From an uncultured Pseudomonadales bacterium (lineage in GTDB: Bacteria; Patescibacteriota; Microgenomatia; UBA1400; UBA12108), in NCBI GenBank assembly GCA_964527065.1, contig CAZGNX010000001.1, positions 45-64,044 of the forward strand: a stretch of 64,000 nucleotides of DNA. Reading direction: 5' to 3'. The notes beneath the pieces are model-generated. The model was given only the letters and a program-made list of their open reading frames with translations, searched no databases and was not told where the DNA came from. Positions 18,945-51,860 of the stretch are shown piece after piece. Within the stretch, counting starts at the first letter, position 1; each line of letters begins with the position of its first letter. The position numbers were made by a program, and so were the translations under genes.

Positions 18945-19946
18945 TCAACTACTTGCCCTGAGCTCAATTGGAGATAGGATGGTATTGTTAACGGCGAGCT
19001 GTTGAGGCGGGAAACTGAACCCATCTTTGTCGACCTCGATGACATAGGTCCCAGGACCAAGGGGGGTGGAGGTGTAGAACTGGCCGAGCGAGTTAGTCTT
19101 CATGGCCCTTTGGGGAATGCCGTCGCCGCTGACAATTTGGACGATTGCGTCTGGCACCAATTTGTCTCCTGCATCCACAACCACTCCGGTCACGAGGTTG
19201 GCAACCTTGGGGGAGGCGGGGAGGGTGATGTGTTTGGCAGAGCTAATCGGCACCGTCGCCGCTGATCTGGGGGCAGTGGGCTTGGAAGCGAAGACTATGT
19301 TTTCGGTGGTAGGGGGCGCAGAGACAGTGGTTGGGTTGGGCGCGGACTTGGGTATAGAGATCGGGACAGTTTTTGGAGTTTGGACGATCCGGTTGACCAC
19401 GGCTGACTGTGGGTTGAGTTTGCGGACAACAATTGAGGGCTTGACGACATCAACTGTTTTGGGGGGAGCTGGGGCGGTAGGGGTGACAGGAAGGGAGGTA
19501 AAGAGCGAGTCGAGAGAGGTAATCTTTGTTGATTCTTCAGCGCTCAAGTCTGAGATAGGCGTGCCTACCACTTGAGAGCTGGGAGCTTTGATGGTTTTGG
19601 TAATGGTGGTGACTAGGTCGGGGGGGTGGGCAGTGAAGAGAAACAAACTAGGGATTTTGTTGGTTTTTTGCCAGGTGAAGCGAGTGGGAGCATAAATTGC
19701 TTTGATAAAGTTGACAATCCACTGGTCAAGTGGGCGGTCTTCGATGGGGAAGAAGGCGAGGCCCACCCCCAAGAGGAGCGAGAGAATGACAAGTGGCCAC
19801 TTGAAGATGAAGATAAGGTTGCTGGCAAAGAAGAGGTAGGCAAGCACCATGCCCAGGGCCAGCTCCAAAAATTGCTTGAGCGTCATGTCTCCCACCAGGC
19901 GGAACTGGTACTGGGTCACGTTTTGGGGGATGGGGTGCTGCTGCAT
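18945..19946 (-). CDS. PrgI-like (VirB3-analogue) membrane protein with Pro/Thr-rich linker and C-terminal CarboxypepD_reg-like beta-sandwich
   Basis: 333 aa. TM 'FKWPLVILSLLLGVGLAFFP' + 'IEDRPLDQWIVNFIKAIYAPTRFTW' resembles the PrgI family. C-terminal 'VVDAGDKLVPDAIVQIV...GQFYTSTPLGPGTYVIEVDKDGFSF'. Confidence 0.45.
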   Translation of the reverse strand: MQQHPIPQNVTQYQFRLVGDMTLKQFLELALGMVLAYLFFASNLIFIFKWPLVILSLLLGVGLAFFPIEDRPLDQWIVNFIKAIYAPTRFTWQKTNKIPSLFLFTAHPPDLVTTITKTIKAPSSQVVGTPISDLSAEESTKITSLDSLFTSLPVTPTAPAPPKTVDVVKPSIVVRKLNPQSAVVNRIVQTPKTVPISIPKSAPNPTTVSAPPTTENIVFASKPTAPRSAATVPISSAKHITLPASPKVANLVTGVVVDAGDKLVPDAIVQIVSGDGIPQRAMKTNSLGQFYTSTPLGPGTYVIEVDKDGFSFPPQQLAVNNTILSPIELRASS

Positions 19947-19991
19947 ACAGTTTGAGTATACGGTATGCGGTAGAGAGTATGAAGTATGGGA

Positions 19992-20618
19992 TCAAGGAGA
20001 TGGAGACGGACTGGCAATAACATACCTGTGGGCTTCGGCGTCACCGCCCATGCTCTTTACCCACTCCTTGATTTCGTCAATGGCTTCTTGCGAAGTTATA
20101 TTGAGATTTTTGAGGGTGATCTCTAGTGTCATGGGGGAGGAGTAGACCACGCGGTAGAGTGGGGTGGTGTAGGGGGTGGATTGGGCAAGAGGATAGTCGC
20201 GCGCTAGCTCATCCTTCATGTTTTTGATGAGCAGCGGGTCGGTTTGAGAAGCTTGGGTGGTGAAGGAGTAGTCAGGAAGCTTTTGGTCTTTCCACTTGAT
20301 TTGCAGGAGATATTTTGTTTGTGGTTGAAGAAGAAGAGCAGGCTGTGCTCGTAGGCTTGTGGGGCTGCTTTGACTAAGCGTCCAGGAGATGCTTGGAACA
20401 GAGGCGAGTGTAAAATCAGCCGCAAAAACCTCTTCATCAAAAGTCAATAATGGTTTGATCTCGAGGCTTACGGCAAGGGCATTATGTGTGGGATTAGCTG
20501 CTACAATTTGGGGAGGGCTCGCCATCGACTTGTTCAAAAACACAAAAATAGCCAAAACGACCCCTAGGCCAACAGCCATGATTACATATAAGAGCCTTGA
20601 TCGTAAAAAGCGCTGCAT
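19992..20618 (-). CDS. membrane-anchored hypothetical protein (T4SS locus)
   Basis: ~208 aa. N-terminal TM 'LLYVIMAVGLGVVLAIFVFL', then a Ser/Thr-rich extracytoplasmic region. Translationally coupled to the upstream 945-aa gene. Confidence 0.5.
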   Translation of the reverse strand: MQRFLRSRLLYVIMAVGLGVVLAIFVFLNKSMASPPQIVAANPTHNALAVSLEIKPLLTFDEEVFAADFTLASVPSISWTLSQSSPTSLRAQPALLLQPQTKYLLQIKWKDQKLPDYSFTTQASQTDPLLIKNMKDELARDYPLAQSTPYTTPLYRVVYSSPMTLEITLKNLNITSQEAIDEIKEWVKSMGGDAEAHRYVIASPSPSP

Positions 20619-23498: not shown

Positions 23499-26400
23499 AT
23501 GCCTATGGGTGAACATCTACAAGTTGGTATATCAGACAAACTGCGCGCTCTGGTTGAGAAAGCGAGAGGTGAGAAAAAACCCAGAGACAACGAAGATGCG
23601 CCGATTGGAGAAAAGAAGAAAAACATCCTCGAGTGGGCATTGACAGCGGCGGCAACGAGAATCGTGTTGGCTCGTGATGTAGGAGAACTTTCTGTTCAAT
23701 TGAAGGATATACAGAGTAGTTTGGCAGGTGGAAAAGATACTGCCGAAGTGGATAGGTTGCGAGCCGCCGTCATGGACAAGATGGATGAGCTCGTTCATGG
23801 GGAGGACTTGATTGAGGCGAACACCGCGATGAAGGGGTATATTTATAGCGGCAAAGTTGGGGATGCGGTTGCGCTATTGGAAAAAATGGCTAAACAGGAT
23901 AGGTATAAACTAACCACTGCTCAGCACAAAGAGGTTGACGAGTTGTTGGGGTCAGTGAAAGATCTCGATACTGAGAAGAGCGCGAATGATGCTGTAATAG
24001 AAGCCAAGATTAAGCAAGTTGAACAAAAGGGTGGCGCACTCAGCAAGACAGTGGACAAAGAACTGACATCTATCAGAGACAGCAGCAACGAGATAGAGAC
24101 GAGCGTGTCGGCAAAGAATTTGGAAAATGAAAAATTAAAACTAATCCCGAAGAAGCTAACTAAGAAGAAGATAGAGATCAAGCAGGCAGAGGTGGTAGAA
24201 ATAGCTCAACAAGCCGACAAAGTGGCCGACAAACACGACAAGGCCACGAAACATGATAATAGATTTATCAAAAAACTATTAGAAGGTGGAAATGATGGGT
24301 TTGGGGTAGTGGATGCAAGCGGGAATCTGGTTATTGAAATCGATAAATTGAGCCATCCTAAGGCAGAATATTTGTATGGTCGTGTGAGTACGGCTTTAGG
24401 GAGATATCAGAGCAAGCTAGGAAGTCCCGATAACGCTGAACTGAAGGCCTATCTAGAAGAAGTGGAGTTTGAATTGCGGGGGCGGCTCCATGACTTAGAG
24501 GACATAGATCGGGAGAAGTGGAGAGTAGAAGGTAAGACAGAGGATGAAATGAAGTGGGAAAAATTGCCAGCCATAGAAAAATCAAGGATTATAGAAAACT
24601 TTGACTTCATTGACAAGAATATGTCGGCAGAGCAGATGTTGCAACATGCAATGCGAGAGCGTCAGAATCAGGGTATTAGCATGAAGCGTAGTGAGGTGGC
24701 TTTACAAAATCTATTACGCGAGCACCCAGAAATCCGGGCAAAGTTTAATGAGAAGGGAGAGTGGGTGGGGACGGCGGAAGAGTTTTTTGAACTTTGCCGA
24801 CTCGAAATTTACAAAATTAGAGATAGTGTCCCTGAGGAGCGCTTGGGCAATTTGGTGTTTGAGGAAACGGCTGATATATATCTTGCCCTGATGGGAATTA
24901 GTACCAAGAATAACCCCGAGCTAAAAAACATGAAGGATGCGGTAACCAAGACTCTTTATCTGGAGTTTGTGGTTAAGTCTCTATGGAAAGCTGGGGGTAA
25001 CCATGAGGCCTGGCAGAGAGCGGCAGCACTCATTTTGAGAGAAGGGGCAGACACCAACTTTTTCTTGACAATGAAGGTCAGGGAAAAATTGCGCGGGAAG
25101 GATAAAAGGGGGAACGATATTCCTCCACTGCCAGGATTTAATATCGATGACATGATGACGCTTGGTGAGCTGAGGGCACCCAATGGTCAATCATGGCTGG
25201 CCTATATTTCTACTAACAATATTCAGCTGAATGAATCTAGATTACAGGAGATGGGTAATGCCCTAGCAAAACTTACCCTTGAAAAGGCAAAATTGCGCAA
25301 GAACAAGGACAGAAAGATGGAGATCTCTAGCGCTGACTACTCTACGTACCTGGCGATGTTAACTAATAAGGAAATCAAGTTTGACAAGGAACAGCTTGAT
25401 TGGGTGCGTAACTATATGCAGTATATCCATGTTGCCACCCTCAACGTCGGAGAGAAACTATGGCTGATGGATGGGACAGTCCCTGGTAGAAAAGGATTTG
25501 ATTACGCTAGTCTCCCAGGGGGCCAGTTTGCACAAAAGTCGGGGTTGTGGCCTATCTTATATTTTGCTAAATACAACGTGACGAAATATGGCTTTGAAGG
25601 GCTTGGTAAGTTGTTTATCCCTAACCCAGGCCTGTTGTCGTACGCAAGAGGAGAAACTTTAAGACACTTTATGTCGGCGAATGGGAGTGAGGACTGGTTA
25701 AGAGATCCAGAGGGGGATTTGTATAAACCGGGAGGAGGAGCGAGAGACTTTTTCTTTGAAGGGAAGACAAAGACCGATCAGGAAATGAAGGTGTTTACTG
25801 ACTTTTGGGAAGAGATATGGCTTGATTCGCGTACAGGAACTTCTTTTAAATCTAAAGGGATGCGCTCACTCCAGAATTCAAGAGATGTAGGGATGGAGCT
25901 GATTAAACTGAACAAACACAAAGATTTTATCGATGACATGAAGTTTGATCAATTAGAGAGACTCGTTGGTCACGAAATACCGGGTGCTACTAACGAGGAA
26001 AAACTTACTTGGGTAGTTGGAAACTTGGATTACGACATGATGGAGATGAGCACGATGCCATCTAAGCGGGAGGGAGACTGGGTAAATAAGTATTCTAAGA
26101 TTTATGTAGAAACGGTGAAGGCATTCCAAGACTTTTTGGATGCACCCACTTTGACTAACAAAATGAAGATCATTACATCAGTTGCACAATACAATAGTGA
26201 AGCTGTGTCCAACCTCTCGAAACAGTTGAATGATTTTATTGAGAATAAAAGTAAGTATAAAATCGGTCTTTTGAAGAGAAAGAATCCTAAAACTGGCCAA
26301 ATTGAGCTGGGGAACCCACTAAATCCTTTTCATTGGATCGGGCCAAAAACAGTGAGTGACGACCAGAAGGATCTCGTGCGATCGGCGGATGGGGACAATA

Positions 26401-26798
26401 TGGAGATGCCTGTCATGGGGAAAAGCGCCACAGATGGATGGTACCTAGGGAGAGGACTGAAATTCTCATTGGAAGAGGCCAAAGAGGGTAGGCGTAATCC
26501 CATGGTGATGAAGAAGATTGAGATCCAAAATGAGATTGCTTGGGGGATAGTGTCTCCGCAGGAAGGCGGCCAGAAAATGCGAGACTGGCAGAAAATGATA
26601 TATTTTGGCGATCAAATAGTCCTAGGAAAACTAAAACTGAGGCCTGGGATGATCCCCTTTTTGACCCCGTACTTTTTACTGCGAGGCTACTGGGTAGACA
26701 GGATGGGTTTTGATTGGGAGGACTTTAAGATGATTATGGCCAAGCAAAATGAAGAGACGTGGGAAAAGCTGAAGAAGTTACTGGGGATTGAAATATAG
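23499..26798 (+). CDS. large orphan protein (1099 aa), Lys/Glu-rich helical N-terminus, no recognisable domain
   Basis: Long uninterrupted ORF with protein-like composition. No TM, signal peptide, Walker or HUH motifs found. Embedded between the two T4SS operons. Confidence 0.7.
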   Translation: MPMGEHLQVGISDKLRALVEKARGEKKPRDNEDAPIGEKKKNILEWALTAAATRIVLARDVGELSVQLKDIQSSLAGGKDTAEVDRLRAAVMDKMDELVHGEDLIEANTAMKGYIYSGKVGDAVALLEKMAKQDRYKLTTAQHKEVDELLGSVKDLDTEKSANDAVIEAKIKQVEQKGGALSKTVDKELTSIRDSSNEIETSVSAKNLENEKLKLIPKKLTKKKIEIKQAEVVEIAQQADKVADKHDKATKHDNRFIKKLLEGGNDGFGVVDASGNLVIEIDKLSHPKAEYLYGRVSTALGRYQSKLGSPDNAELKAYLEEVEFELRGRLHDLEDIDREKWRVEGKTEDEMKWEKLPAIEKSRIIENFDFIDKNMSAEQMLQHAMRERQNQGISMKRSEVALQNLLREHPEIRAKFNEKGEWVGTAEEFFELCRLEIYKIRDSVPEERLGNLVFEETADIYLALMGISTKNNPELKNMKDAVTKTLYLEFVVKSLWKAGGNHEAWQRAAALILREGADTNFFLTMKVREKLRGKDKRGNDIPPLPGFNIDDMMTLGELRAPNGQSWLAYISTNNIQLNESRLQEMGNALAKLTLEKAKLRKNKDRKMEISSADYSTYLAMLTNKEIKFDKEQLDWVRNYMQYIHVATLNVGEKLWLMDGTVPGRKGFDYASLPGGQFAQKSGLWPILYFAKYNVTKYGFEGLGKLFIPNPGLLSYARGETLRHFMSANGSEDWLRDPEGDLYKPGGGARDFFFEGKTKTDQEMKVFTDFWEEIWLDSRTGTSFKSKGMRSLQNSRDVGMELIKLNKHKDFIDDMKFDQLERLVGHEIPGATNEEKLTWVVGNLDYDMMEMSTMPSKREGDWVNKYSKIYVETVKAFQDFLDAPTLTNKMKIITSVAQYNSEAVSNLSKQLNDFIENKSKYKIGLLKRKNPKTGQIELGNPLNPFHWIGPKTVSDDQKDLVRSADGDNMEMPVMGKSATDGWYLGRGLKFSLEEAKEGRRNPMVMKKIEIQNEIAWGIVSPQEGGQKMRDWQKMIYFGDQIVLGKLKLRPGMIPFLTPYFLLRGYWVDRMGFDWEDFKMIMAKQNEETWEKLKKLLGIEI

Positions 26799-26801
26799 TG
26801 C

Positions 26802-28376
26802 TTAGGCTGATTTTTTTGGTTTGCCACTGCCTTCTTCTTCGTATTTCTTCATAGCATCGACGTTGGCACGAGCTTGGAATTCTGCCATTGAGCGTTGCTC
26901 GCGGAGCGAACGAGCTTGCTTGCCCCAGCCCACAGGATAGCCCACACCGGTTGAAACAACCCCACCAAAGGCTTTGAGAGCCTCGGCACCATAGGGAGAT
27001 TCTTTGACTTGTAGCCATTCCTGAGCCATCTTGGCAGCTGAAGGGGTCATGAGGAAAACAAAAAACCCGATCAAGGCCAGGATATCCAGACTTTGGACAT
27101 CAGCGTTGGGACCTAAGGCATCGGTCAAGGTGAAGGGGGGGACCCAGACTTCTGTACGTCCAGCAATATCTCTCACCCCAAAAGGATTCTGTTGGCCGAT
27201 TGTGGAGGGACCGCCGTCGCCTGGCCACAGGTCATTGGCGACAATGGCGCTCGTGGGATTGCCAATCAAGATGGCAGAGAAAATAAACATACTCGCCACA
27301 ACGGGGAAGGGAATGAGGTAGCTAGCTGTGGTTTTGATCCAGGTAGAGAAGGCCTTACTCCCGGGCATGGCGTTCATCAAGATTTGAAGTGGGGCGGTGA
27401 TGGTTTGGACGATGAGCATGACGTAGGATTTAATGAGAGCAACCATTAATTTAAGCATAGCTATGATAAAACTAACCACCACAAACAAATAAAGGGGCGA
27501 AACCATTCCGAGAGTTAAAAACTGCGTGGCAGTGTCGAGAAAGTTGACGAGACCACCAACAATGCCAATACCACCAGTACCAAGGCTACCCAGTACTCCC
27601 TGAAGAGACCCAGTAACGGCTAGGATAATGCTGTTGCGGCCAGCAAAGACCACATTCCAGGCAGAATGAGTCATCAACCTTTCGATGGAGGCGCTTGCAT
27701 CAATGATCCCTACTGAGGCAATGAGATACACGACAAAGTAGATGAGAAAATACATGAGGTCGATCATAAAACCGACGATAGCGTAGGAGAAGGTGATGAG
27801 CAAGAGTGTCACGAGGAGGTTGGGGATGGCACTCTGAATGGTAATCACTGTCTGGGCATTCACCTTAGTGCGGAGCATAATCATGACGCCCACAACCACG
27901 AACATGATGATGTAGAGTGAGTAGGCGACATTGCGGAAGACTTTCCAGAATTCGAGAAATGGTTGCATTGCTGTGTAGCCCGTGCCTTGGGCGTAGGCCC
28001 GACTGACAGAGGGAATGCCAATGTTGTCAAGCAGATCGGCAACATATTCTCGGCTGGAGATTTGGTTGTTATAGATCATGGCGACAACCTTGCCTTGTGT
28101 GCCCAAAACACCGGGGCTGTAAATATAGCCGAGACCATCAGCCGAAGGGAGCTTGCCACCCAAAAAAGCAAATTGATTTTGTGGTACTGAGCTCAGGCGA
28201 TCTTTGATACAGGGATCTTCTGGGGTATTGGCAACGTTAAAGCTGGTGATAGTTAGGTTGCTGTTGATAGCGCAGATAAAGCCATTCAGTAGTCCAGGAG
28301 TGGCCTCTACGGCAGAGGCAGGGGTGGGACTGGTGAGGAAGAGAAACATAAGAAAGACGAGCAAGAGCTTTTTCAT
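26802..28376 (-). CDS. VirB6/TrbL-like polytopic membrane protein
   Basis: 524 aa. Signal peptide 'MKKLLLVFLMFLFLTSPTPASA', ≥6 TM helices, hydrophilic C-terminus. Placement within a T4SS-like operon. Confidence 0.5.
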   Translation of the reverse strand: MKKLLLVFLMFLFLTSPTPASAVEATPGLLNGFICAINSNLTITSFNVANTPEDPCIKDRLSSVPQNQFAFLGGKLPSADGLGYIYSPGVLGTQGKVVAMIYNNQISSREYVADLLDNIGIPSVSRAYAQGTGYTAMQPFLEFWKVFRNVAYSLYIIMFVVVGVMIMLRTKVNAQTVITIQSAIPNLLVTLLLITFSYAIVGFMIDLMYFLIYFVVYLIASVGIIDASASIERLMTHSAWNVVFAGRNSIILAVTGSLQGVLGSLGTGGIGIVGGLVNFLDTATQFLTLGMVSPLYLFVVVSFIIAMLKLMVALIKSYVMLIVQTITAPLQILMNAMPGSKAFSTWIKTTASYLIPFPVVASMFIFSAILIGNPTSAIVANDLWPGDGGPSTIGQQNPFGVRDIAGRTEVWVPPFTLTDALGPNADVQSLDILALIGFFVFLMTPSAAKMAQEWLQVKESPYGAEALKAFGGVVSTGVGYPVGWGKQARSLREQRSMAEFQARANVDAMKKYEEEGSGKPKKSA

Positions 28377-28399: not shown

Positions 28400-28909
28400 T
28401 TAGGGCTTGAGCTTGAGAGCGGTAATCCAGGCTTGGGTAGTATGTCTCACATATTCTTTGTCGCCGTAGATGAAAATGAGTTTTTTGGGATCAATATTTT
28501 GACCTTCAAGCATCTCCATAGCCTTGAGATAACTTTCTTTGAACGCTGTGACGTTGGGGTTCTTTTTTTCGTCTGCATCCGCGTTGAGATATGAGAGGCC
28601 GTAGATCTCGAGACGTACAATCTCGGCTTCGTCGTCGTCAAGGCGATAGAGGTTGATAGAAGTGGTGATGCCCACGGAGGTCTCGAAGGACTCGAGGTAG
28701 AGTGGGAGCTTGTTTTCAATCGAAGCAACATACACCATAGTGTCGCGGCGTTTTTCGGCTGAGAGATCGGCGAGTTCGATGCGGCTGGGTCCAGTTGGGA
28801 CGGGTAGTTCTGCAGGGTTGCTGACATTTTTACTTGGCGAGAGAAGTAGTACTAGGACGAGGAGAGAGATCGAGATAGCGGCGGCGATAAGGAAGAATTT
28901 GTTGTTCAT
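28400..28909 (-). CDS. membrane-anchored hypothetical protein
   Basis: 169 aa. N-terminal TM 'FFLIAAAISISLLVLVLLL'. Translationally coupled (3-nt gap) to the upstream 879-aa gene. Confidence 0.5.
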   Translation of the reverse strand: MNNKFFLIAAAISISLLVLVLLLSPSKNVSNPAELPVPTGPSRIELADLSAEKRRDTMVYVASIENKLPLYLESFETSVGITTSINLYRLDDDEAEIVRLEIYGLSYLNADADEKKNPNVTAFKESYLKAMEMLEGQNIDPKKLIFIYGDKEYVRHTTQAWITALKLKP

Positions 28910-28911: not shown

Positions 28912-31551
28912 CTAGAACCCTGGTAGCTTGATAATATCACCCGCGACAATACGCAAAATCGAGACCGAGAAAATAAGGAAGAGGAGTCCGGTGACGGCGG
29001 CACCAAAGAGTTCTTTGCCTTTTTTGAGTTTCTCGTCATTGTCTCTGGCGGTCATGATTTGGAAGATGGCGATAAACATCACCACGATAGCGATACCGCC
29101 GGCTAGGCCGACCAAGAAAGCAAAAAGCGCGGTGCCAAAGGCCTCTCTCGTGTAGGGGATACAACCCAGGGCGGTGGAGAGTGATTGCGGGCCACAACTC
29201 GTGGGGAAGAAGCCGAAGGTGCCAGGCTCGTTGTCTGGTGTTGTGGGGGGGATTAGTGGGGCGGGAGGGGGAGAGGGGAGCTCGGTATTTTCATAACCAC
29301 CCTTGGTCATGTTGTTATACACGCTGAGAGCAACAGTAAACGAACCAGGTCTTTCAAAGATTTGAGGGGCGCAGGCGGTGCGGTCGGCACAGTAGAGGAG
29401 ATACATCGAATCGTGTTTGCCATCGAGGAAGCTGGTCGGGTAGGGATCGTCCTCGCCTTCAAAAGCGCGGGGACAGCCGCCATAGGGGATGGGATAAGGA
29501 TAACCGAGTTGACAGTTACTGTTGCCACCACCGTTGTAGCGGGAGAGAGCGGTGATGGCAGTCTGCGCATCCCCAATTGCCCCGCCCACCTTGCCTTTGA
29601 GATGTTCACCCGCATAGACGGCAGTCTCAAGGAGGGAGCGGAAGATCTTACCGCCCGCATCGGGCTCGGGAGTGCCGAGAGCCCGCCCAGAAACGAGTGA
29701 GCCATTGGGGTTATTGGCCGCCTCGACAAAGTGGATACCCGCCAAGATTTCACACGGTACGCCGGTCTCCTTTTCGGCGGCGGCATAGGTGTTCATTAGT
29801 TCGGCGCTCAAATTGGGTTGGATAAACGTCGAGAAGTAGCTCTCGCCCTTGGCGCTCGCGCTCTGATAATTACTACTGCCAAGCAGTTCACCAAACAGCC
29901 GTCCGTCACATTTACCTTCTGGTACCACCTGGGCGGTATCGCAGCCATTGCGGGTACCCAGAGCGTACGCCTCAACGCTAGTCTCAAGCTGAGCGGAAAA
30001 CATGTTGTCAGCACAGGTGTAGTAGCCATAATGACGCCTACCATCGGCGGGACCTGAGTATTTGCCTGCTTTGAGAAGATCAAGGTTGTCGTCTACGACA
30101 TTGCTGAGTTTAACATTAAACTCTTTGACTGATTCTAGCTCGGCCAAGGTATCGCGAGTGTCGTAGGTGTATTGCTTAATCTCTGCGATACTTTGACCCA
30201 TTGCGTCTGGAATTGTCAAGAGGTGATAAACGACAGGTTCAACGTCGTCAATCTGAGCGCCCCAAATGAGATTGATGAGAGCTTGTAGAAGGTTGCCGGT
30301 GGGGAATGCCGCGGCCTTTTCTTTTTGTACCTCTGGTTGGAGGCGGTAGCCAGGGCAGTTTTTATCTCCTCCGAGAAAAGATGGTGTTTCCAAATAGTCG
30401 TAGATTTGGTAAAAGGCGCCGTAGGAACCAAAGTGATATTTGAAACAGGGATTGCTCGCCATAAGCTCTGGAATGAGGCGTGCCTTAATCTTTTTGGCGG
30501 TGGCGTTTGGCGCCGCAGAGCCAGCAAAGCGAATTAGCTGGTTGGACGAGGCAAGGTCGCGAATTATTTTGCTTGCCTCATCTAGTGGATAGGTGAGAAG
30601 TAGATCGTCAAGGGCGGCGCCAAAGGCTTGGGAGATAGAGATGTCGCCGTAGAGCGCGTTGGAGTTGCCCTCCAACGCAAGGCTGCTAAAGGGGCAGTTT
30701 TCTCCGGGGCAACAGCGATCCCAGACGCAGATACTGGCGTGGACATACCCCTGGCGAAACGAGGGGCTATACATCGGGACTTGGGAGAGGTCCCTAAACC
30801 ACTCAGGTGGGGTAGTTTGTGAAGCTGCCTCTTCTATAGCGTCACAGGCTCGTTTACGGGAGCTTGAGGCATCGGAGACGGCATCGAGATTGCCGGCGTT
30901 TAAGAAAAAATCGTCCGTTGCTTCCACTATCACCTGTCCAGCCCCTGCCAATCCTCCAGGTATTTCGTCGCGGATCTCGAGTAAGGTTTTGCCGTTCTGG
31001 GTTGTGTAGCCCCAGTCGACCCAGCCAAGTGGCCACTGCCCAGTCTCAGCTAGAGTGTTCTTGGTTTGCTTGGCACGAATCACGACCATGAGCTGTTTGG
31101 TCATGATCTCGCACTGAGTAAGCCCGAGGAAGTGGGTACCCCAAGTGATCGCGTTATCTGTACCCATGTTGCCATACAAGAGGGCTTCGTTTTGGATTTT
31201 GGGGAAAACGAGGCGAGTGAGTGGACGAGCGCCCGTCTCAGCTCCCGTTTCTTGATTCAGTGTCCGATTCTCAGCGGAAAAGTCCGTAGCTTTGATATCG
31301 GAGCCAACGCGGGGTTTTTTCTTGTACTCACATTCGCCCACGCTAACCCCACTCTTGGTAGGATCTTTGATGGCGGTACAACTACCATTGCCTGAAGAGA
31401 CTGTACTATGATAATCACCTCTGCCATTGGCCACCTTGCGCTCACAGAGATCAACCTCTCCACCATCACAGCCGTCAATGAGCTCGCCTGATTGATTATC
31501 GCGCTCACAATAGTCATCTCTACGATCAGCACCTTCGTACTCACAGACCAT
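28912..31551 (-). CDS. giant secreted fusion protein: Cys-rich region + SLT-like lytic transglycosylase motif + C-terminal VirB2/TrbC-like pilin module. Preceded in frame by a signal-peptide ORF cut off by TAG
   Basis: 879 aa from the Met at 31551. 'ILAGIHFVEAANNPNGSLVSGRALG' resembles the SLT catalytic 'ESSFNPNA...GA.GLMQ'. The last ~80 aa ('LGCIP...GLAGGIAIVVMF...KKGKELFGAAVTGLLFLIFSVSILRIVAGDIIKLPGF') are nearly identical to ORF 38811..39248. Confidence 0.7.
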   Translation of the reverse strand: MVCEYEGADRRDDYCERDNQSGELIDGCDGGEVDLCERKVANGRGDYHSTVSSGNGSCTAIKDPTKSGVSVGECEYKKKPRVGSDIKATDFSAENRTLNQETGAETGARPLTRLVFPKIQNEALLYGNMGTDNAITWGTHFLGLTQCEIMTKQLMVVIRAKQTKNTLAETGQWPLGWVDWGYTTQNGKTLLEIRDEIPGGLAGAGQVIVEATDDFFLNAGNLDAVSDASSSRKRACDAIEEAASQTTPPEWFRDLSQVPMYSPSFRQGYVHASICVWDRCCPGENCPFSSLALEGNSNALYGDISISQAFGAALDDLLLTYPLDEASKIIRDLASSNQLIRFAGSAAPNATAKKIKARLIPELMASNPCFKYHFGSYGAFYQIYDYLETPSFLGGDKNCPGYRLQPEVQKEKAAAFPTGNLLQALINLIWGAQIDDVEPVVYHLLTIPDAMGQSIAEIKQYTYDTRDTLAELESVKEFNVKLSNVVDDNLDLLKAGKYSGPADGRRHYGYYTCADNMFSAQLETSVEAYALGTRNGCDTAQVVPEGKCDGRLFGELLGSSNYQSASAKGESYFSTFIQPNLSAELMNTYAAAEKETGVPCEILAGIHFVEAANNPNGSLVSGRALGTPEPDAGGKIFRSLLETAVYAGEHLKGKVGGAIGDAQTAITALSRYNGGGNSNCQLGYPYPIPYGGCPRAFEGEDDPYPTSFLDGKHDSMYLLYCADRTACAPQIFERPGSFTVALSVYNNMTKGGYENTELPSPPPAPLIPPTTPDNEPGTFGFFPTSCGPQSLSTALGCIPYTREAFGTALFAFLVGLAGGIAIVVMFIAIFQIMTARDNDEKLKKGKELFGAAVTGLLFLIFSVSILRIVAGDIIKLPGF

Positions 31552-31644
31552 TAGTGGTTGATAGTCACGAGTGAGATCGCGGTTTTCGTAGACTTTGAAA
31601 TATGGTGCTCGTATGAAACGAAAGAGACTGAATAGCTCAAACTA

Positions 31645-31773
31645 CTCCTCGCGCTCGGGGTTGCCTTCAATAGAGAAGGGGGGGAAGGGGTCGATGGCCA
31701 GGGAAAGAGGAGGAAATAGGAAATAGGAAATAGGAAATAGGAATAATACGAAAAAACGCAAGAGCTTTTTCAT
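31645..31773 (-). CDS. signal-peptide mini-ORF (43 aa) in frame with the 879-aa gene but separated by TAG (31642-31644). Possible pseudogene 5' part or readthrough site
   Basis: Hand translation: MKKLLRFFVLFLFPISYFLFPPLSLAIDPFPPFSIEGNPEREE*. 'LA|IDP' matches the cleavage context of the 145-aa paralogue ('AALAIDP'). Frame stays open from 31641 to the Met at 31551. Confidence 0.5.
31712..31746. repeat. (GGAAATA)4 + GGAATAA heptanucleotide tandem repeat within the signal-peptide ORF
   Basis: Read directly. Same unit as 10607-10634. Encodes 'FPISYFLFP'. Confidence 0.9.
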
Positions 31774-31775: not shown

Positions 31776-32072
31776 CTAGTTAAAGCCAAATCTAAACTCA
31801 GTGACACTGGCTCCTGTTGTATTTTGGATGAATAAGAGGATGAGCCAGGAGAGAATTGAGAGCGCGATACCCACCACTGCGAGAGTAATTGTCTGCTTGC
31901 CTCCGGCCATACCCTTGGGATCACCACCTGAGGTAAGAATCTTGAAACCGCCAATGAGGAGCATGATAAAGGCAACTATGCCAATGAGGGGGATCATGGC
32001 CTCAAGGATGTTGCCGAAGTAGTCGGAGAGACAAGATAGTTCGGCGGCGGAAGCGGTATCGTTGCATGGCAT
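31776..32072 (-). CDS. VirB2/TrbC-like pilin family small membrane protein (paralogue 1)
   Basis: 98 aa. Two hydrophobic helices flanking 'LTSGGDPKGMAGG'. Same architecture as its neighbours. Confidence 0.5.
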   Translation of the reverse strand: MPCNDTASAAELSCLSDYFGNILEAMIPLIGIVAFIMLLIGGFKILTSGGDPKGMAGGKQTITLAVVGIALSILSWLILLFIQNTTGASVTEFRFGFN

Positions 32073-32280
32073 ATGGGATGATTATAGCAAAGAGCAAGGG
32101 TCGGATGATCACATTAATTTTATCTCACTGACTAAAATTGATCTCAAATACGATTGCTCGCAGGCTTCTCGTCTGCACCTGTTCGACTAGACGGCATACT
32201 CGCATTTTCAGGCGAATTTTCGCTCAATTTCTTAACGTATGTTCGTAAAATTAACGATGATCATCCTCACGCTAGGAGTC

Positions 32281-32631
32281 TTAGTAGGCTTTGGGTGGGG
32301 TGATGTTGTCGTTCAATATGCTGATACCGAAGAAGTATTGAATGACAAGCATGATGGCCCAGGCGCTCGCCACAACCGCCAAGCCAACGAGAGCGGCAGT
32401 GATACGATCACGAGCTTCCTGCGTTTTGCCTTTGTCACCGCCGGAGGTGATCCATTGGATGCCACCCCAAATAAGATACATGAAGACGAGCAGGGCAGAT
32501 ATAAGTAGAGCACCCTGGACAGCCCCTTTGATGAGCGTGCCAATGTTGGTGATGGCGACGTTTTCGGGTTTGCCAATTGAGAGTTCTGGAGCGCCTGGGG
32601 CTTGAGCGTAAACTTTGATTGAATCAAACAT
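32281..32631 (-). CDS. VirB2/TrbC-like pilin family small protein (paralogue 2)
   Basis: 116 aa. 'GGIQWITSGGDKGKTQEARDRI' loop between two hydrophobic helices. Confidence 0.55.
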   Translation of the reverse strand: MFDSIKVYAQAPGAPELSIGKPENVAITNIGTLIKGAVQGALLISALLVFMYLIWGGIQWITSGGDKGKTQEARDRITAALVGLAVVASAWAIMLVIQYFFGISILNDNITPPKAY

Positions 32632-32680
32632 ATCTTTCTCCTTATTTGTACTATCTAGTTATAGTGTAGTCAATTATTGA

Positions 32681-33049
32681 TTATTGTGCAATACCTATTC
32701 CAAAGAAATAATCTAGCAGGAGATAGACTGCCCAAGCAGAGGCGACAATGGCGAGTCCAATGATGCCGTTGGTGATTTTGGCGCGCGCTTCGTCCAGTTT
32801 GCCCTTGTCACCACCGGAACTAATCCACTGCAGACCTCCATAGATAAGATAGAGGAGCGTGGCAAGGCCAGCCACAAGAATAATGGCAGAGATGGTTTTG
32901 CTGACGAATGAGCCAAGATCGGTGTTGATGGCGACGCGTGATTCGACCTGATCACCTATACTGACGTTGAATGAGCCGGCTTGGGCATGAGCTGAGCTAG
33001 GAAAGAGGAAAGAGGAAAGAGGAAATAGATACAGTAAAATTTTTTTCAT
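32681..33049 (-). CDS. VirB2/TrbC-like pilin family small protein (paralogue 3)
   Basis: 122 aa. Signal peptide 'MKKILLYLFPLSSFLFPSSAHA'. 'GGLQWISSGGDKGKLDEARAKI'. Confidence 0.55.
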   Translation of the reverse strand: MKKILLYLFPLSSFLFPSSAHAQAGSFNVSIGDQVESRVAINTDLGSFVSKTISAIILVAGLATLLYLIYGGLQWISSGGDKGKLDEARAKITNGIIGLAIVASAWAVYLLLDYFFGIGIAQ

Positions 33050-33053
33050 ATGC

Positions 33054-33443
33054 TCAGCCGGCAGTGGGCCAGATTATATTGAGTATATTCATCCCGATGG
33101 CCATCTCAATAAACTTGATAATGACATAAGAGGCAGCGAGGAGGGCGAGTCCCACGAGACCTTGGGTGATTTTGCCCCTAGCTTCGTCGATCTTGCCTTT
33201 GTCACCCCCGGCCGTGATCCACTGTAAGCCGCCGTGCAAAAAGTAGAGGATAAACGCGAGCCCACCTACAAGAATGATGGTCTGCCAAAGAGTAGCGATC
33301 GTGATAGCAAATTGTTGTGGGGAAGCATCGGGTGAGTCACCTCCTGGTACGGCGGTGTTGGTGATGGCGGCATGCGCCAGAGACGCTCTTGTATAAAGTA
33401 TGGAGTATAGGGTATATAGTATCGGGACTATTTTGTTTGTCAT
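33054..33443 (-). CDS. VirB2/TrbC-like pilin family small protein (paralogue 4)
   Basis: 129 aa. 'GGLQWITAGGDKGKIDEARGKI'. N-terminus 'ILYTLYSILYT' is encoded by a degenerate AGTATRG heptamer repeat (33395-33425). Confidence 0.55.
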   Translation of the reverse strand: MTNKIVPILYTLYSILYTRASLAHAAITNTAVPGGDSPDASPQQFAITIATLWQTIILVGGLAFILYFLHGGLQWITAGGDKGKIDEARGKITQGLVGLALLAASYVIIKFIEMAIGMNILNIIWPTAG

Positions 33444-33445
33444 TT

Positions 33446-33805
33446 TTAGTTCACTGTAAGGCCGTTAATAAGTGCGCCAGGGTTGAGGATGTCGAGCCCC
33501 AGTGCTTTGCCCACAATCCAGACGATAGCATAAGAAACAGTGACTACAATGATGCCTGTTGCGCCTCCTGTCATCATGCTTTTGGCTTTGTCGATCTTGC
33601 CTTTGTCACCACCGGCCGTGATCCAATTGAGGCCACCCAGGAGGAAATAGAGGGCGAAGGCTATGCCAGCCACGAGAGTGAGGATTACAAGAATATTGCT
33701 GATGAGTTTTTCCACGGCACTTGTTGACCCCTCGATGCCTGTCCCTGGTTGGTAGCCACCGGGAGTGGTGATGTTGCCAAATTGGAGCGCGAGGTATTTG
33801 TTCAT
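33446..33805 (-). CDS. VirB2/TrbC-like pilin family small protein (paralogue 5)
   Basis: 119 aa. 'GGLNWITAGGDKGKIDKAKSMM'. Confidence 0.55.
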   Translation of the reverse strand: MNKYLALQFGNITTPGGYQPGTGIEGSTSAVEKLISNILVILTLVAGIAFALYFLLGGLNWITAGGDKGKIDKAKSMMTGGATGIIVVTVSYAIVWIVGKALGLDILNPGALINGLTVN

Positions 33806-33809
33806 ATGT

Positions 33810-34148
33810 TTAGTTGGGTGATCCTGGTCCGACTATATTGGGGGAGAGAATTGCGGTCGCAGAACCAAAGAGGAGGAAAGAGACTATGCCAGTGACGGCA
33901 GCCGCGGCTACCATGATGGCGAGGCCGATGAGGGACATGTTGATTGAGTAGAGCGCTGACTCGATCTTTTTAGTATCTCCGGCGGCGCTAATATAACTAA
34001 AACCAGCTATCATGAGGTTGAAGAAAGCGAATAGTCCGGCGGCGGCAAAAATAATCGTAATAACATTGGTTATAAAAGTAGGGAGGCCAGACTCAACGGA
34101 ACCGTAGGCGGTGATGGGGGAATCGATACTACCAAATGTGCTTGGCAT
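33810..34148 (-). CDS. VirB2/TrbC-like pilin family small protein (paralogue 6, divergent)
   Basis: 112 aa. 'SYISAAGDTKKIESAL' between two hydrophobic helices. Confidence 0.5.
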   Translation of the reverse strand: MPSTFGSIDSPITAYGSVESGLPTFITNVITIIFAAAGLFAFFNLMIAGFSYISAAGDTKKIESALYSINMSLIGLAIMVAAAAVTGIVSFLLFGSATAILSPNIVGPGSPN

Positions 34149-34152
34149 AAGT

Positions 34153-34473
34153 TTATATATTACTGTTTAGTATTGATAGTCCTGTCACCACTTGGATTAG
34201 TTGGATAATCCAGTAAGAGGCGAAGAGGACTAACAGCCCCATTATAGCAGAGGTGATAGTTTTGGTACCGTCTTTGATTTTGTCAGTGTTGCCGGCATTG
34301 CTGATGATGGTAAAGCCGCCAAAGAGGATCATAAAGAAGATGACAATACCTCCGGCGATATAGACATTGGGGAGAATGTTGTTGATAAGGGAGCTCGTGT
34401 CTGGATACTGGGAACTGGCGGGGGTACCCTGGAATTTGAGTTTTTCACCAATATTGACGGTAGAAACTGGCAT
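34153..34473 (-). CDS. VirB2/TrbC-like pilin family small protein (paralogue 7, divergent)
   Basis: 106 aa. 'GGFTIISNAGNTDKIKDGTK' between two hydrophobic helices. Confidence 0.5.
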   Translation of the reverse strand: MPVSTVNIGEKLKFQGTPASSQYPDTSSLINNILPNVYIAGGIVIFFMILFGGFTIISNAGNTDKIKDGTKTITSAIMGLLVLFASYWIIQLIQVVTGLSILNSNI

Positions 34474-34510
34474 GTCTCAAGTATAGCGTATCCAGTATAA
34501 TGTATATAGT
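34474..34510. promoter_or_regulatory. 37-nt divergent promoter region between the pilin array and the ECF sigma operon; GTATA-type heptamer periodicity
   Basis: 'gtctcaagtatagcgtatccagtataatgtatatagt'. Contains a TATAAT-like hexamer and AGTATAG / CGTATCC / AGTATAA / TGTATAT / AGTATGG 7-mers. Confidence 0.4.
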
Positions 34511-35047
34511 ATGGAGGAATTGGTTGAGAAAGTCTTGAATGGTCAGAAGGGGGCGGCGACGCGGTTTTACCACACCCTTTCGCCTAGCGTAAAGCGATAT
34601 TTGGCAGGCAAACTACCTGGGCATGAGGAGGTGGAGGAGCTAACCCAAGAAGTGTTTTTGTCGGCACTTGACTCGCTATCACTCTACCGTGGTGAGTCCA
34701 GTCTCAAGACCTGGATACTCTCGATTGCCCGCCACGAAGTGGCGGACTATTACCGCAAGCGTTATGTACGTGCCGTCATTGAGCAGACCTCCCCATTATT
34801 TGATGCGATCGTGGCAGATATCCATACCCCAGAATTTGAGATGAAGAAGAGCAAGCTTAGAGCCCGGTTTATGCGGGCATATCATGGTCTGAGTGAGCAA
34901 TACCGAGATGTTTTGAGTTTTCGCTTTGAGCTAGGGATGAGCGTCAAAGAGATTGCAGAGAGAATGGAAATGAGCGTCAAGGCGACAGAGTCACTGCTCT
35001 TTAGAGCACGAACAGCATTTAGAGTGGCTTATGAAACCAGAGAATAG
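34511..35047 (+). CDS. ECF-type RNA polymerase sigma-70 family factor
   Basis: 178 aa. Region 2 ('EELTQEVFLSALDSLSLYRGESSLKTWILSIARHEVADYYR') and region 4 HTH ('MSVKEIAERMEMSVKATESLLFRAR'). Confidence 0.85.
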   Translation: MEELVEKVLNGQKGAATRFYHTLSPSVKRYLAGKLPGHEEVEELTQEVFLSALDSLSLYRGESSLKTWILSIARHEVADYYRKRYVRAVIEQTSPLFDAIVADIHTPEFEMKKSKLRARFMRAYHGLSEQYRDVLSFRFELGMSVKEIAERMEMSVKATESLLFRARTAFRVAYETRE

Positions 35048-35267
35048 ATTTATCGCTGAGTTGGAACAAAAAGCCAAAGAACAGCAAAAATTGGTGGATA
35101 CTCAGATCATTCCTGGTTGGGCACGCGGCTTAGGTAATTGGCTGGCGGTGAACCCTTGGCGACTGGTAATACCAGTCGCCGGTATTGTGTATGGAGTATT
35201 GCGTATAGTGTACGGGGAACAATTTAGAGAATTAATATTAGGACTGTTTGGGGGATTTGCCAGATGA
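35031..35267 (+). CDS. putative anti-sigma factor (single-pass membrane protein)
   Basis: 78 aa. Overlaps the sigma gene end. Cytoplasmic helical N-terminus then TM 'LVIPVAGIVYGVLRIV'. Confidence 0.4.
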   Translation: MKPENRFIAELEQKAKEQQKLVDTQIIPGWARGLGNWLAVNPWRLVIPVAGIVYGVLRIVYGEQFRELILGLFGGFAR

Positions 35268-35569
35268 AAACACTTGTTTTGTGGATGAGCTATGTGTGGA
35301 GCGTGACACTGGCCGGACTCGCGATCCATCCTTACCAGTCGGTGAGGAGGATGGTGTTGGATAAGCCAGTATTGCTGCCAGTTACGCTTTCGCCAGTTCT
35401 GGGTCTTGTGGGACTATTTGTGGTTGGGAGGGTGTTTAGCTATGCATTTACCCTTGGCCCCATAGGACGTGAGCTCGCGGCCCTCGTGCTGGGGAGTACA
35501 CTGATTGGGCTCTTGTTGTGGCAAGGACTTCTCATTGCACTGGTTCTACGGTTTTGGCGCGCCCGGTGA
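35264..35569 (+). CDS. small polytopic membrane protein (sigma operon)
   Basis: 101 aa, three hydrophobic helices. ATGA overlap with the upstream gene. Confidence 0.45.
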   Translation: MKTLVLWMSYVWSVTLAGLAIHPYQSVRRMVLDKPVLLPVTLSPVLGLVGLFVVGRVFSYAFTLGPIGRELAALVLGSTLIGLLLWQGLLIALVLRFWRAR

Positions 35570-38493: not shown

Positions 38494-38808
38494 CTATGAG
38501 ATGATGTTGACTTTGAAGATGACCTGGAGGATTTGAGCGATCCAGTAGGCGAGGAAGATGACAAAGAAGCCGGTGAGGGCGCCGGTCACCATTTTTTTAC
38601 CTTTTTCTTGTGACTCTTTGTCGGCGGCACCGGCGAGCATGGTAAAGCCTCCAAAGACTAGCATTCCAAGTAAGATTAGTCCTGCGATCGTCAGTAGATA
38701 AGGAAGAAAGCCACCAATGATGCCACCAAGGCTATCGGTGTCTGCAAGACTGCCACTGCCCAAGCCGATTGCTTTATTGAGAGATGTATAGTCGATGAAT
38801 TCTGGCAT
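38494..38808 (-). CDS. VirB2/TrbC-like pilin family small protein (second locus)
   Basis: 104 aa. 'GGFTMLAGAADKESQEKGKKMV' between hydrophobic helices 'LLTIAGLILLGMLVF' and 'GALTGFFVIFLAYWIAQIL'. Confidence 0.5.
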   Translation of the reverse strand: MPEFIDYTSLNKAIGLGSGSLADTDSLGGIIGGFLPYLLTIAGLILLGMLVFGGFTMLAGAADKESQEKGKKMVTGALTGFFVIFLAYWIAQILQVIFKVNIIS

Positions 38809-38810
38809 AT

Positions 38811-39248
38811 TTAATTAATGAACCCTGGTAGTTTGATGATATCACCTGCAACTATTCGTAGAATAGACACGGAGAAGATAATAAACAAAAGTCCGGTGAT
38901 CGCTCCAGTAAATAATTCTTTGCCCTTTTTAACTTGTTCGGCATTATTGCCACCAGTCATAATCTGGATAGTTGCAATGAGCATAATGATGATGGAGATA
39001 CCTCCCGCTAAACCTGTAAGAAAGGTGAGGAGGGCGGAGGAAAATCCGGCAGTAGAGGTGGGGATACAGCCAAGACCCGTGTTGATCTGTGGGTTTGTGG
39101 CGGAGCTACCGGGGCACCCACTAGTGGGGTCGATGGCGAGGGCCGCAGGGGCGAGTATAAAGTATAGAGTATAGAGTATGGAGTATAGAGCTGGGCGAGC
39201 GTGTGTTAGGATATGGGTATGGTTTCTCTCTGGAAAAAGCTTGTTCAT
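38811..39248 (-). CDS. free-standing pilin module paralogous to the C-terminus of the 879-aa protein
   Basis: 145 aa. 'GLGCIPTSTAGFSSALLTFLTGLAGGISIIIMLIATIQIMTGGNNAEQVKKGKELFTGAITGLLFIIFSVSILRIVAGDIIKLPGFIN'. Signal-peptide codons lie on an (AGTATAG)5-type heptamer repeat (39153-39189). Confidence 0.6.
   Translation of the reverse strand: MNKLFPERNHTHILTHARPALYSILYTLYFILAPAALAIDPTSGCPGSSATNPQINTGLGCIPTSTAGFSSALLTFLTGLAGGISIIIMLIATIQIMTGGNNAEQVKKGKELFTGAITGLLFIIFSVSILRIVAGDIIKLPGFIN
39153..39189. repeat. AGTATAA/AGTATAG/AGTATAG/AGTATGG/AGTATAG heptanucleotide tandem repeat in a signal-peptide coding region
   Basis: Read directly. Encodes 'LYSILYTLYFIL' on the minus strand. Confidence 0.85.
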
Positions 39249-51820: not shown

Positions 51821-51860
51821 AGTAGCAAGGATTATATCAGGGAAAAATAAATAAGAGGGG

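Follow-up and report, generated by a model that had tools for sequence, protein, structure and literature searches.

A tandem array of T4SS_pilin genes in a Microgenomatia genome is conserved copy by copy under purifying selection

The window analysed here is a stretch of DNA of 64,000 nucleotides (nt) from an uncultured Microgenomatia bacterium (positions 45 to 64,044 of contig CAZGNX010000001.1, GenBank assembly GCA_964527065.1). It carries seven consecutive open reading frames (ORFs) of 98-129 amino acids (aa) on the minus strand at 31776-34473, labelled A to G in transcription order. They encode pilin-like proteins, and the window contains three further copies of the same module, two as the separate genes X and Y and one as the C-terminal part of a large protein, H. 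A comparison with related genomes shows that the paralogues are old and non-exchanging, and that each is kept individually in a fixed order by purifying selection. It is considered rather probable that the ten modules are VirB2-like hairpin subunits of a patescibacterial type IV secretion system (T4SS), and that they make up a fixed set forming one heteromeric pilus or conduit for host contact.

The ultrasmall Patescibacteria, which live attached to other cells, constitute a large share of the bacteria that are not in culture. A T4SS with a series of pilins is essential in the one species tested so far. The results below describe the many pilin copies as a fixed parts list, long conserved and with a conserved expression layout, and not as a variable repertoire. 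This steers towards heteromeric assembly, i.e., which copy is the major subunit, which copies nucleate, and what the role of the putatively lysozyme-bearing fusion is, and it steers away from models of immune or host evasion. The concrete candidates are F as the major subunit, H as a wall-cutting tip or base, and a neighbouring sigma factor unit as the regulator.

Conservation of the array across relatives

Gene A (34153-34473, 106 aa) is the first gene of the array and has no signal peptide. It is followed on the minus strand by B (33810-34148, 112 aa), C (33446-33805, 119 aa), D (33054-33443, 129 aa), E (32681-33049, 122 aa), F (32281-32631, 116 aa), and G (31776-32072, 98 aa). The number, size, and strand of these genes had been given in an earlier note on this DNA, and the ORF list returns exactly the same coordinates. 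The note also placed two more copies at 38494-39248. The ORF list, a match to the Pfam family PF18895, and the alignment identify these as Y (38494-38808, 104 aa) and X (38811-39248, 145 aa), both on the minus strand. X has a signal peptide and a pair of cysteines, and it adjoins a SpoIID-like gene, an arrangement that is kept in the relatives. According to the identity matrix X is the closest paralogue of the pilin module of H (67% identity in the core), which makes up residues ~785-879 of the 879-aa ORF listed for that gene. A search with a profile built from the ten modules found no eleventh copy among the window ORFs of at least 60 aa.

Ten close copies of the locus were compared (L001-L006, L012-L014, and L023). 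L001 is the window itself (identical), L023 stems from a sister strain with 99% identity, and since L003 and L005 are duplicates of L002 and L004, six independent related genomes remain. Five distant loci, L007-L011, are from Amesbacteria, Gottesmanbacteria, and others. The close relatives were found by exact protein look-up, and a profile search of genome contigs confirmed at least six loci.

Every close locus that spans the array (eight loci from six independent genomes) contains exactly seven tandem pilin genes. Orthologues at the same position are 62-88% identical, as against 28-56% for the next-best paralogue, and the cores of A-G are 20-50% identical to one another. An H orthologue (914-960 aa) follows the array, and the X-Y pair is present, wherever the contig of the relative reaches that far. 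The identities between orthologues are 62-79% for A (same position in all eight loci), 63-81% for B, 74-82% for C, 84-87% for F, 70-73% for G, and 65-75% for Y. For D, 233 homologues were found, and the best 120 of the 233 are 67-100% identical.

The earlier note had proposed a phylogeny of the ten modules, and dN/dS across strains, as checks on diversification. When 112 modules were aligned and placed in a neighbour-joining tree, all ten orthogroups were monophyletic and no paralogue fell within another group. The median ratio of nonsynonymous to synonymous substitutions (dN/dS; Nei-Gojobori, seven genomes) is 0.08-0.14 for each of A-G, with 0.08 for C and 0.13 for B. Synonymous sites are saturated and these values are accordingly rough, but they denote strong purifying selection. 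F is the most constrained of the seven by the same method, has the lowest pN (proportion of nonsynonymous differences; 0.116), and is the most conserved copy. The orthogroups can also be recognized by signatures outside the hairpin. These are ITNTAVPGG..SP.QFAIT and NILNI.WPTAG in the tails of D, APGAP.LSIGKP.NVAITNIGTLI and NITPPKAY in the tails of F, AILSP.ITGPGS in the C-terminal tail of B, and VT.F.FGF in G.

The distant loci hold 6-11 copies, yet the order A-B-C-(E/F)-F-G can be traced in them, Gottesmanbacteria-level relatives included. The pilin copy number varies between orders and is fixed inside the clade of the window. The one-to-one collinear orthology, the purifying selection, and the lack of mixing between paralogues point to non-redundant subunits and not to an antigenic repertoire.

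In the two Amesbacteria-like loci, L007 (7207-11052) and L008 (7706-12276), the X-like gene is part of one run with the main array. This merged run consists of 10-11 pilin genes beside the SpoIID-like gene and includes extra E/F-like copies.

Family, fold, and topology of the modules

All ten modules match the Pfam family T4SS_pilin (PF18895), with E-values from 1.3e-9 to 3e-3. This family is taken to represent VirB2/TrbC in Patescibacteria. The gathering score of 26.6 bits is exceeded by six of the ten modules and by five of the seven in the array. Y has the highest score of the ten (38.4 bits), and it is followed by F (36.5 bits), G (33.5 bits), A (30.6 bits), B (29.2 bits), and E (28.7 bits). 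C (25.4 bits), D (24.1 bits), X (22.5 bits), and the H module (18.0 bits) match the same region of the profile with E-values from 1.5e-5 to 3e-3, and many orthologues of D carry a precomputed PF18895 label. All of the 47 array members collected from six lineages match this family. TrbC/VirB2 is the sole other family that recurs among their Pfam matches; 14 of the 47 match TrbC (PF04956) at E ≤ 0.1 (best 1.7e-5) across nearly the whole profile. No module of the window reaches the TrbC gathering score of 27.9 bits, the best being X (15.9 bits, E-value 0.016) and E (13.7 bits, E-value 0.075), while two relatives score 25.7 and 26.4 bits, which is about 2 bits below it. Recurrent matches of this kind below the threshold indicate related families rather than membership. 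Judged by these profile scores the array genes are members of PF18895, and relatives but not members of PF04956. Together with the location in a T4SS cluster, this upholds the earlier assignment to a VirB2/TrbC-like pilin family.

Six of the ten modules also match NF045849 (Mbov_0395 pilin-like) over nearly the whole of its 80 positions, with E-values from 1e-3 to 1.3e-6. This family, found in the integrative and conjugative elements (ICEs) of Mollicutes, likewise comprises small hairpin proteins of monoderm conjugation systems of the MPF-FATA type (MPF, mating pair formation). The scores of 13-28 bits (best 28.0 bits, E-value 1.3e-6) are, however, all under the cut-off of 40 bits, and the window modules are thus not members. 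In Mollicutes NF045849 is known as a single gene.

Each module is a two-helix membrane hairpin of about 70 residues. Hydropathy analysis (Kyte-Doolittle) gives two hydrophobic segments of about 20 residues per module with a short polar loop between them. In the AlphaFold model of D, which has a predicted local distance difference test score (pLDDT) of 80, a helix formed by residues 38-77 is joined to a second one (82-116) by a loop at 78-81, and the hairpin part is modelled with a pLDDT of at least 90 (90-95). The helix-loop-helix arrangement described in the earlier note is therefore found in each gene, while the signal peptide it had mentioned as well is seen among A-G only in D and E. The grouping of the loops into four similar and three divergent ones is retained in the alignment, save for one detail, as the original pattern missed the DKA in C. 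C, D, E, and F share the GGDKGK loop, for which the consensus is GG[LI][QN]WI[TS][AS]GGDKGK[ILT][DQ][EK]A. The divergent loops are those of A (SNAGNTDKIKDG), B (SAAGDTKKIESA), and G, as quoted in the note.

Lysine and arginine are concentrated in the loop (2-5 per 18 residues, density 0.11-0.28), compared to 0-3 per 25-40 residues in the N-terminal tails (density 0-0.07) and 0-1 in the C-terminal tails (density 0-0.17). According to the positive-inside rule, this side of the hairpin, rich in K/R, should face the cytoplasm, and both termini should be outside. The architecture of intact H, where a signal peptide and an ectodomain with 24 cysteines precede helix 1, leads to the same outside-inside-outside orientation. 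In VirB2-type pili the loop lines the lumen, as seen in the structures of the F- and T-pilus. The prediction for the Gly-rich loop is thus a position in the cytoplasm, or in the lumen if the pilus is of the VirB2 type, and not on the surface, which argues against the proposal that its diversification reflects a surface-variable element.

N-termini that resemble leaders and end in AxA are found in D, E, X, and H, and are lacking in A, B, C, F, G, and Y. In this genome the signal peptide of D ends as …SLAHA|AITNT, and the array members without a cleavable-looking signal peptide begin with a polar tail of 25-40 residues. Most orthologues of D and E begin directly at the mature N-terminus, indicating that the leader is evolutionarily optional. 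The signal peptide of E is encoded by a perfect 7-nt tandem repeat at 32999-33025, and since it is absent in most orthologues, it may have been created by repeat expansion.

A perfect 7-nt tandem repeat is also found in the signal-peptide region of H (31711-31743). Further 7-nt repeats within coding regions are located at 10602-10631, 10333-10363, 10768-10798, 11047-11069, and 11182-11209, where they encode membrane helices of a 436-aa polytopic membrane ORF (10201-11511). The repeat units are perfect or near-perfect (AGGAAAT x4.7, AGGAAAG x3.9, TAGGAAA x3.9, and others) and encode hydrophobic stretches, and the peptide PISYFLFP, which is encoded by such repeats, is found in two unrelated proteins. 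Phase variation by slippage of the repeats in H and E was considered and rejected, as the 99%-identical L023 has the same number of repeats.

Expression layout, gene H, and possible assembly

The genes from A to E are separated by 2-4 nt, while 49 nt precede F and 208 nt precede G, and only 2 nt lie between the stop codon of G and the beginning of H. A -10-like box, TATACT (34480-34485, minus strand), matches the consensus and precedes the ATG of A by 6 nt. In all of the seven genomes compared the corresponding site reads GCTATA[AC]T, often in the extended form TGnTATAAT, at 6-8 nt from the ATG. An extended -10 box, TGCTATAAT (32081-32089, minus strand), likewise precedes G, and four of the seven genomes have this same box while the other three have variants containing TATAAT. 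The -10 boxes could be recognized only because they are conserved across the genomes, as a generic scan gave no excess. Only F is preceded by a canonical Shine-Dalgarno sequence (AAGGAG or AGGAGG at a distance of 6-9 nt), and this is the case in all seven genomes; in the window it is AAGGAG at 32638-32643 (minus strand). The spacer between F and G displays no unusual RNA structure (fold z -1.35). This layout suggests three units, i.e., a near-leaderless A-E, a strongly translated F, and a near-leaderless unit containing G, H, and the downstream VirB8- and VirB6-like genes, and it makes F a candidate for the major subunit. Expression signals that are conserved, yet different between the genes, point to fixed roles and argue against diversification.

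A gene for an extracytoplasmic function (ECF) sigma factor with Sigma70_r2 and r4_2 domains (34511-35047, plus strand) is transcribed divergently from the array. It is followed on the same strand by genes encoding a 78-aa single-helix protein with a hydrophobic segment (35031-35267), which is a possible anti-sigma factor, and a 101-aa membrane protein with hydrophobic segments (35264-35569). The 37-bp spacer between A and the sigma factor gene also holds the -10 box of the latter. All close loci share this three-gene neighbourhood, and among the distant ones L009-L011 have the sigma factor as well (31-35% identity). The conserved promoters of the array look sigma-70-like, with an extended -10, although they lie beside an ECF factor.

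Arrays of four to six GTATNNN heptads are found at five sites in the window, where shuffled sequences give an expectation of zero, and all of them are beside or inside T4SS or pilin-associated genes. They are located upstream of the PrgI-like gene (19956-19987), at the 5' end of D (33391-33429), in the spacer between A and the sigma factor gene (34474-34519), in the gene for the 78-aa protein (35175-35213), and, upstream of the SpoIID-like gene, at the 5' end of X (39155-39186). The heptads were considered as a regulator-binding element, but the site between A and the sigma factor gene, which only L004, L005, and L006 have conserved, largely corresponds to two -10 boxes placed back to back, and the proposal was set aside.

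Gene H (28912-31773, minus strand) encodes, when intact, a protein of ~953 aa with a signal peptide, a Cys-rich ectodomain containing a putative lysozyme- or lytic-transglycosylase-like domain, and the C-terminal pilin module. In the earlier note a pilin copy was described as fused to an 879-aa protein; the fusion is real, while the length is that of a truncated frame. An in-frame TAG at 31642-31644 (minus strand) leaves the listed 879-aa ORF (28912-31551) and cuts off the signal peptide, and the frame ahead of that ORF contains MKKLLRFFVLFLFPISYFLFPPLSLA… and this one TAG. Both a 77%-identical orthologue (P0122) and the 99%-identical L023 have a tyrosine codon (TAT) at this position and read on. 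L023 differs from the window by a second T/G difference 6 nt from the TAG. Among the 68 homologues of H nearly all are 908-977 aa, i.e., ~70 aa longer than the 879-aa ORF, and the four shorter ones (592-854 aa) look partial. H is thus a ~953-aa protein that is interrupted in this assembly, be it by a nonsense mutation, a polymorphism, or an error. Slippage in the 7-nt repeat was rejected as the cause, since the change is a substitution (TAT to TAG) and not a frameshift.

Intact H orthologues consist of a signal peptide, ~780 residues with 24 cysteines, and then helix 1, loop, and helix 2. With moderate confidence H is taken to be a wall-cutting, VirB1-like protein in which a lysozyme-like ectodomain is placed on a pilin module. 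Profile searches of the ectodomain gave no match to the SLT or lysozyme families. The motif GVPCE(I/V)LAGIHxxEA in the ectodomain contains a conserved glutamate. H further differs from the VirB1-type lytic transglycosylases by its size (~953 aa), by being rich in cysteine, and by the covalent link to the pilin module.

If the ten modules form one heteromeric pilus or conduit, each hairpin would be inserted in the membrane so that its K/R-rich loop faces the cytoplasm and its two termini the outside. Extraction from the membrane would then be the task of the VirB4 ATPase and a VirB6-like platform, and the modules would assemble into a single structure where F would be the abundant major subunit and the others would be minor, positional, or initiating. 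Through its own pilin module, H might set a cell-wall-cutting lysozyme-like domain on this structure. By analogy to the essential array of Southlakia epibionticum, it would not serve conjugation but contact with a host cell or exchange with it. This is suggested also by the lack of a relaxase or coupling protein among the window ORFs scanned.

Several observations weigh against such a structure. C, D, X, and the H module score under the PF18895 gathering threshold, although C and D are short of it by only 1-2.5 bits. When the family was aligned by hhalign to eight annotated VirB2/TrbC proteins, both helices were in register, but the E-value was 0.07 and the probability 0.8%, and the outcome was alike with 10 or 112 family members; the VirB2 query was 99% identical to an annotated virB2. 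The family profile retrieved no solved pilin from the PDB sequences, only one chance match to a transmembrane helix. A Foldseek search of the PDB with the D model gave nothing significant (best E-value 3.5), the T-pilus (8exh_A) being ranked as number 32 with an E-value of 9.3, as helical hairpins are non-specific. In contrast to classical VirB2, most copies have no leader, and the majority of the D and E orthologues do not have one either. No VirB5-like tip protein was found in the cluster. The case for F as the major subunit consists of its ribosome-binding site and its conservation, and the promoter calls are consensus matches, the generic scan for promoters and terminators not being enriched over shuffled sequence. 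Finally, the stop codon in H means either that the gene is dispensable or that the assembly is wrong.

A more far-reaching version of the heteromeric assembly is doubtful. It would make the array encode an obligately heteromeric VirB2-type filament or tube with F as the major and A-E, G, X, and Y as positional minor subunits, and with H as a pilin-anchored muramidase that opens the cell's own wall or that of the host. If true, it would be without precedent among VirB2-type structures in having a fixed composition of several different subunits, comparable to the major-minor sets of type II systems and type IV pili, and it would be controlled by a dedicated pair of ECF sigma and anti-sigma factors.

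It is also conceivable, if on balance unlikely, that the hairpins never leave the cytoplasmic membrane and form a heteromeric ring there, or line a channel, similar to VirB3/PrgI or a c-ring, and that no pilus is extruded. Most of the established facts are shared with the heteromeric pilus, and the two differ only in the final assembly state. Monoderm MPF-FATA systems are normally without a pilus (PMC12102498, PMC12857230). The fold is generic, and ATP-synthase c-subunit-like and other hairpins were matched by Foldseek as well as the T-pilus was. A missing cleaved leader in most copies, a fixed multi-subunit stoichiometry as is typical of membrane complexes, and the weak matches to the 'pilin-like' NF045849 of Mollicutes ICEs (E-values down to 1.3e-6) would all suit a membrane-resident complex. 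To our knowledge no pilus has been documented for the NF045849 family. On the other hand, the closest family, TrbC/VirB2, polymerises. The ~780-aa extracellular domain on the pilin module of H is easier to understand if the modules leave or project from the membrane, and the conserved extracellular tails on every paralogue suggest contacts on the outside.

That the paralogues are interchangeable major pilins, expanded to vary a surface filament for antigenic or host-range diversification, was one of the explanations offered in the earlier note, and it is now improbable. The paralogues are indeed very divergent, with core identities of 20-50%, the array size ranges from 6 to 11 copies across the orders represented by L007-L011, and the paralogues vary the most in their N- and C-terminal tails, for which a position outside is predicted. 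Within the clade, however, there are exactly seven copies in the same order in all related genomes compared, with one-to-one orthologues at 62-88% identity, dN/dS is 0.08-0.14 for all seven, the orthogroups are monophyletic, and neither gene conversion nor lineage-specific duplication is seen. The tails are conserved within the orthogroups (e.g., ITNTAVPGG..SP.QFAIT in D and NITPPKAY in F), and the loop that had been highlighted is predicted to be cytoplasmic. The note's other suggestion, a stoichiometric set in which major and minor pilins are combined, agrees with the fixed set seen here, and the division into major and minor is what the expression layout and conservation suggest.

The notion that these are unrelated small membrane proteins (holins, bacteriocin-immunity proteins, or toxin-like peptides) that mimic a hairpin draws on the commonness of such hairpins, the non-specific Foldseek result, and sporadic weak Pfam matches to assorted membrane families, but it is effectively refuted by the PF18895 matches of all members, by TrbC as the sole recurrent second family, by the conserved T4SS cluster (VirB4, VirB3, and VirB6-like) around the genes in all relatives, and by the outcome of the check for holins and other unrelated families, where F, H, and the 524-aa and 1099-aa proteins of the cluster gave no PHROG match, holin and phage families included.

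Known arrays and the surrounding gene cluster

Arrays of this kind have already been described at scale. In a survey of 3,035 Patescibacteria genomes based on PF18895 and PF04956, 383 assemblies were found to carry a total of 441 VirB2 arrays, each with 2-11 genes, and Microgenomatia and Saccharimonadia were particularly rich in them (Quinonero-Coronel et al., 2025; PMC12102498). The genes were in tandem or one gene apart, with a mean identity of 25% and a maximum of 54%, and the T4SS clusters that held the arrays were MPF-FATA-like, in many cases close to dnaA, and mostly lacked a relaxase (PMC12102498). In Southlakia epibionticum, transposon sequencing (Tn-seq) has shown that the T4SS and the series of pilin subunits are essential for epibiotic growth (PMC10633639; PMC12857230). 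The array of strain ML1 is found at SEML1_0006-0019 and has six genes (Wang et al., 2023; PMC10633639), and a pilus conduit has been raised as speculation (PMC12857230).

The array in the window fits the published description in every respect, and no essential difference from the surveyed arrays was found (PMC12102498). As in these and in the arrays of S. epibionticum ML1 and TM7x, the proteins belong to PF18895, the copy number is within 2-11, and the cluster is of the monoderm type and close to dnaA. The seven tandem genes plus a pair, with VirB4-like, PrgI, and CHAP neighbours and dnaA at 13425, agree with the array definition of the survey. The identity between the paralogues is ~25% with a maximum near 50%, no relaxase was found here either, and the Microgenomatia lineage is rich in such arrays. 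The survey authors suggested, by analogy to Bartonella and Anaplasma, that the variety might help in adapting to different hosts (PMC12102498). As far as the account given there goes, the virB2 arrays of these host-dependent bacteria are likewise composed of divergent tandem virB2-type genes in a T4SS locus and are read as antigenic or host-interaction variation, while the window copies are fixed one-to-one with no turnover within the clade.

What is added here is the orthology at each position and the purifying selection seen across genomes, the conserved layout of A-E, F, and G-H, the divergent ECF sigma unit, the giant lysozyme-like protein with a pilin module, and the predicted cytoplasmic loop. 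A term search of the array papers (PMC12102498 included) found neither the ECF sigma neighbour nor the pilin fusion. These comparative points are hypotheses for the small field that studies the T4SSs of the candidate phyla radiation (CPR), and they do not define a new kind of system.

The modules resemble the VirB2/TrbC/TraA pilins of diderm bacteria (the T-pilus 8EXH and the F-pilus) in having a hairpin of ~70 residues, a short basic loop, and termini that are predicted to be outside. The neighbours are also alike, being of VirB4, VirB3, and VirB6 type with an adjoining protein of lytic-transglycosylase type; in the Ti-type plasmids compared virB1 is directly upstream of virB2. They differ in that the window modules score below the TrbC threshold and mostly have no long cleaved leader, in that there are ten modules and not one major pilin, and in that the host is monoderm and the cluster contains no VirB5, VirB7, VirB9, or VirB10.

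In type IV pili and type II secretion systems ordered operons encode paralogous subunits, one of which is abundant while the others are initiating or located at the tip (GspG with GspH-K). The similarity to these pilin and pseudopilin sets is a functional analogy only, although the paralogues are conserved across species there as well. Type IV pilins have a single N-terminal helix and a globular head, and depend on a prepilin peptidase and a PilB-type ATPase. Both fold and machinery are thus unrelated to those of the window hairpins.

The array is located at the end of a cluster in which nearly all genes are on the minus strand, and it starts 14 kb from virB4. The VirB4-like ATPase (16060-17982, minus strand, 640 aa) matches the TraG P-loop family (E-value 2.3e-28) and CagE_TrbE_VirB, and has a Walker A motif at residue 265. 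Just upstream of it a 213-aa protein with a weak match to TraC_F_IV (18135-18776, minus strand) may be a split-off N-terminal domain of VirB4. The minus strand further encodes a PrgI/VirB3-like protein (18945-19946; PrgI E-value 5e-7), a membrane protein with a Big_5 domain according to Pfam (19992-20621), and a 945-aa membrane protein that contains a CHAP domain (20618-23455). The opposite strand encodes, in the middle of this cluster, a predicted cytoplasmic protein of 1099 aa (23499-26798, plus strand), for which no Pfam or PHROG match and no Walker A motif was found; the copies in the relatives (1089-1244 aa) are located at the same place.

Between this gene and H are found a 524-aa protein with a signal peptide and ~7 hydrophobic helices (26802-28376, minus strand), and a 169-aa bitopic protein (28400-28909, minus strand). 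Neither has a Pfam match, and hydropathy and synteny make them candidates for VirB6-like and VirB8-like proteins, respectively. Both genes are syntenic in the relatives, and in the distant loci the 524-aa gene is the next one after the array. No relaxase or type IV coupling protein (T4CP) domain was found among the window ORFs of at least 150 aa that were scanned against Pfam, a set that leaves out seven ORFs of such size (several of them overlapping or antisense) as well as the overlapping 150-aa ORF at 11378-11830. The named homologues of D and H are from "Candidatus Microgenomates" or "Woesebacteria". Taken together, the gene content points to a chromosomal T4SS of the monoderm, MPF-FATA-like type in a Microgenomatia (CPR/Patescibacteria) bacterium.

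The genes dnaA and dnaN (13425-16063) are found just upstream of virB4, and the other genes of the window have housekeeping functions (UppS, an isopentenyl-phosphate-kinase-like protein, SufB/S, TsaD, L25, and tmRNA). The SufB gene (55599-58094, plus strand) is split by an intein with a LAGLIDADG homing-endonuclease domain. Two adjoining tRNA-Ser genes are located at 51736-51949 (minus strand); ARAGORN gives one of them the unusual anticodon ACT (at position 36), and this tRNA is confirmed by Rfam.

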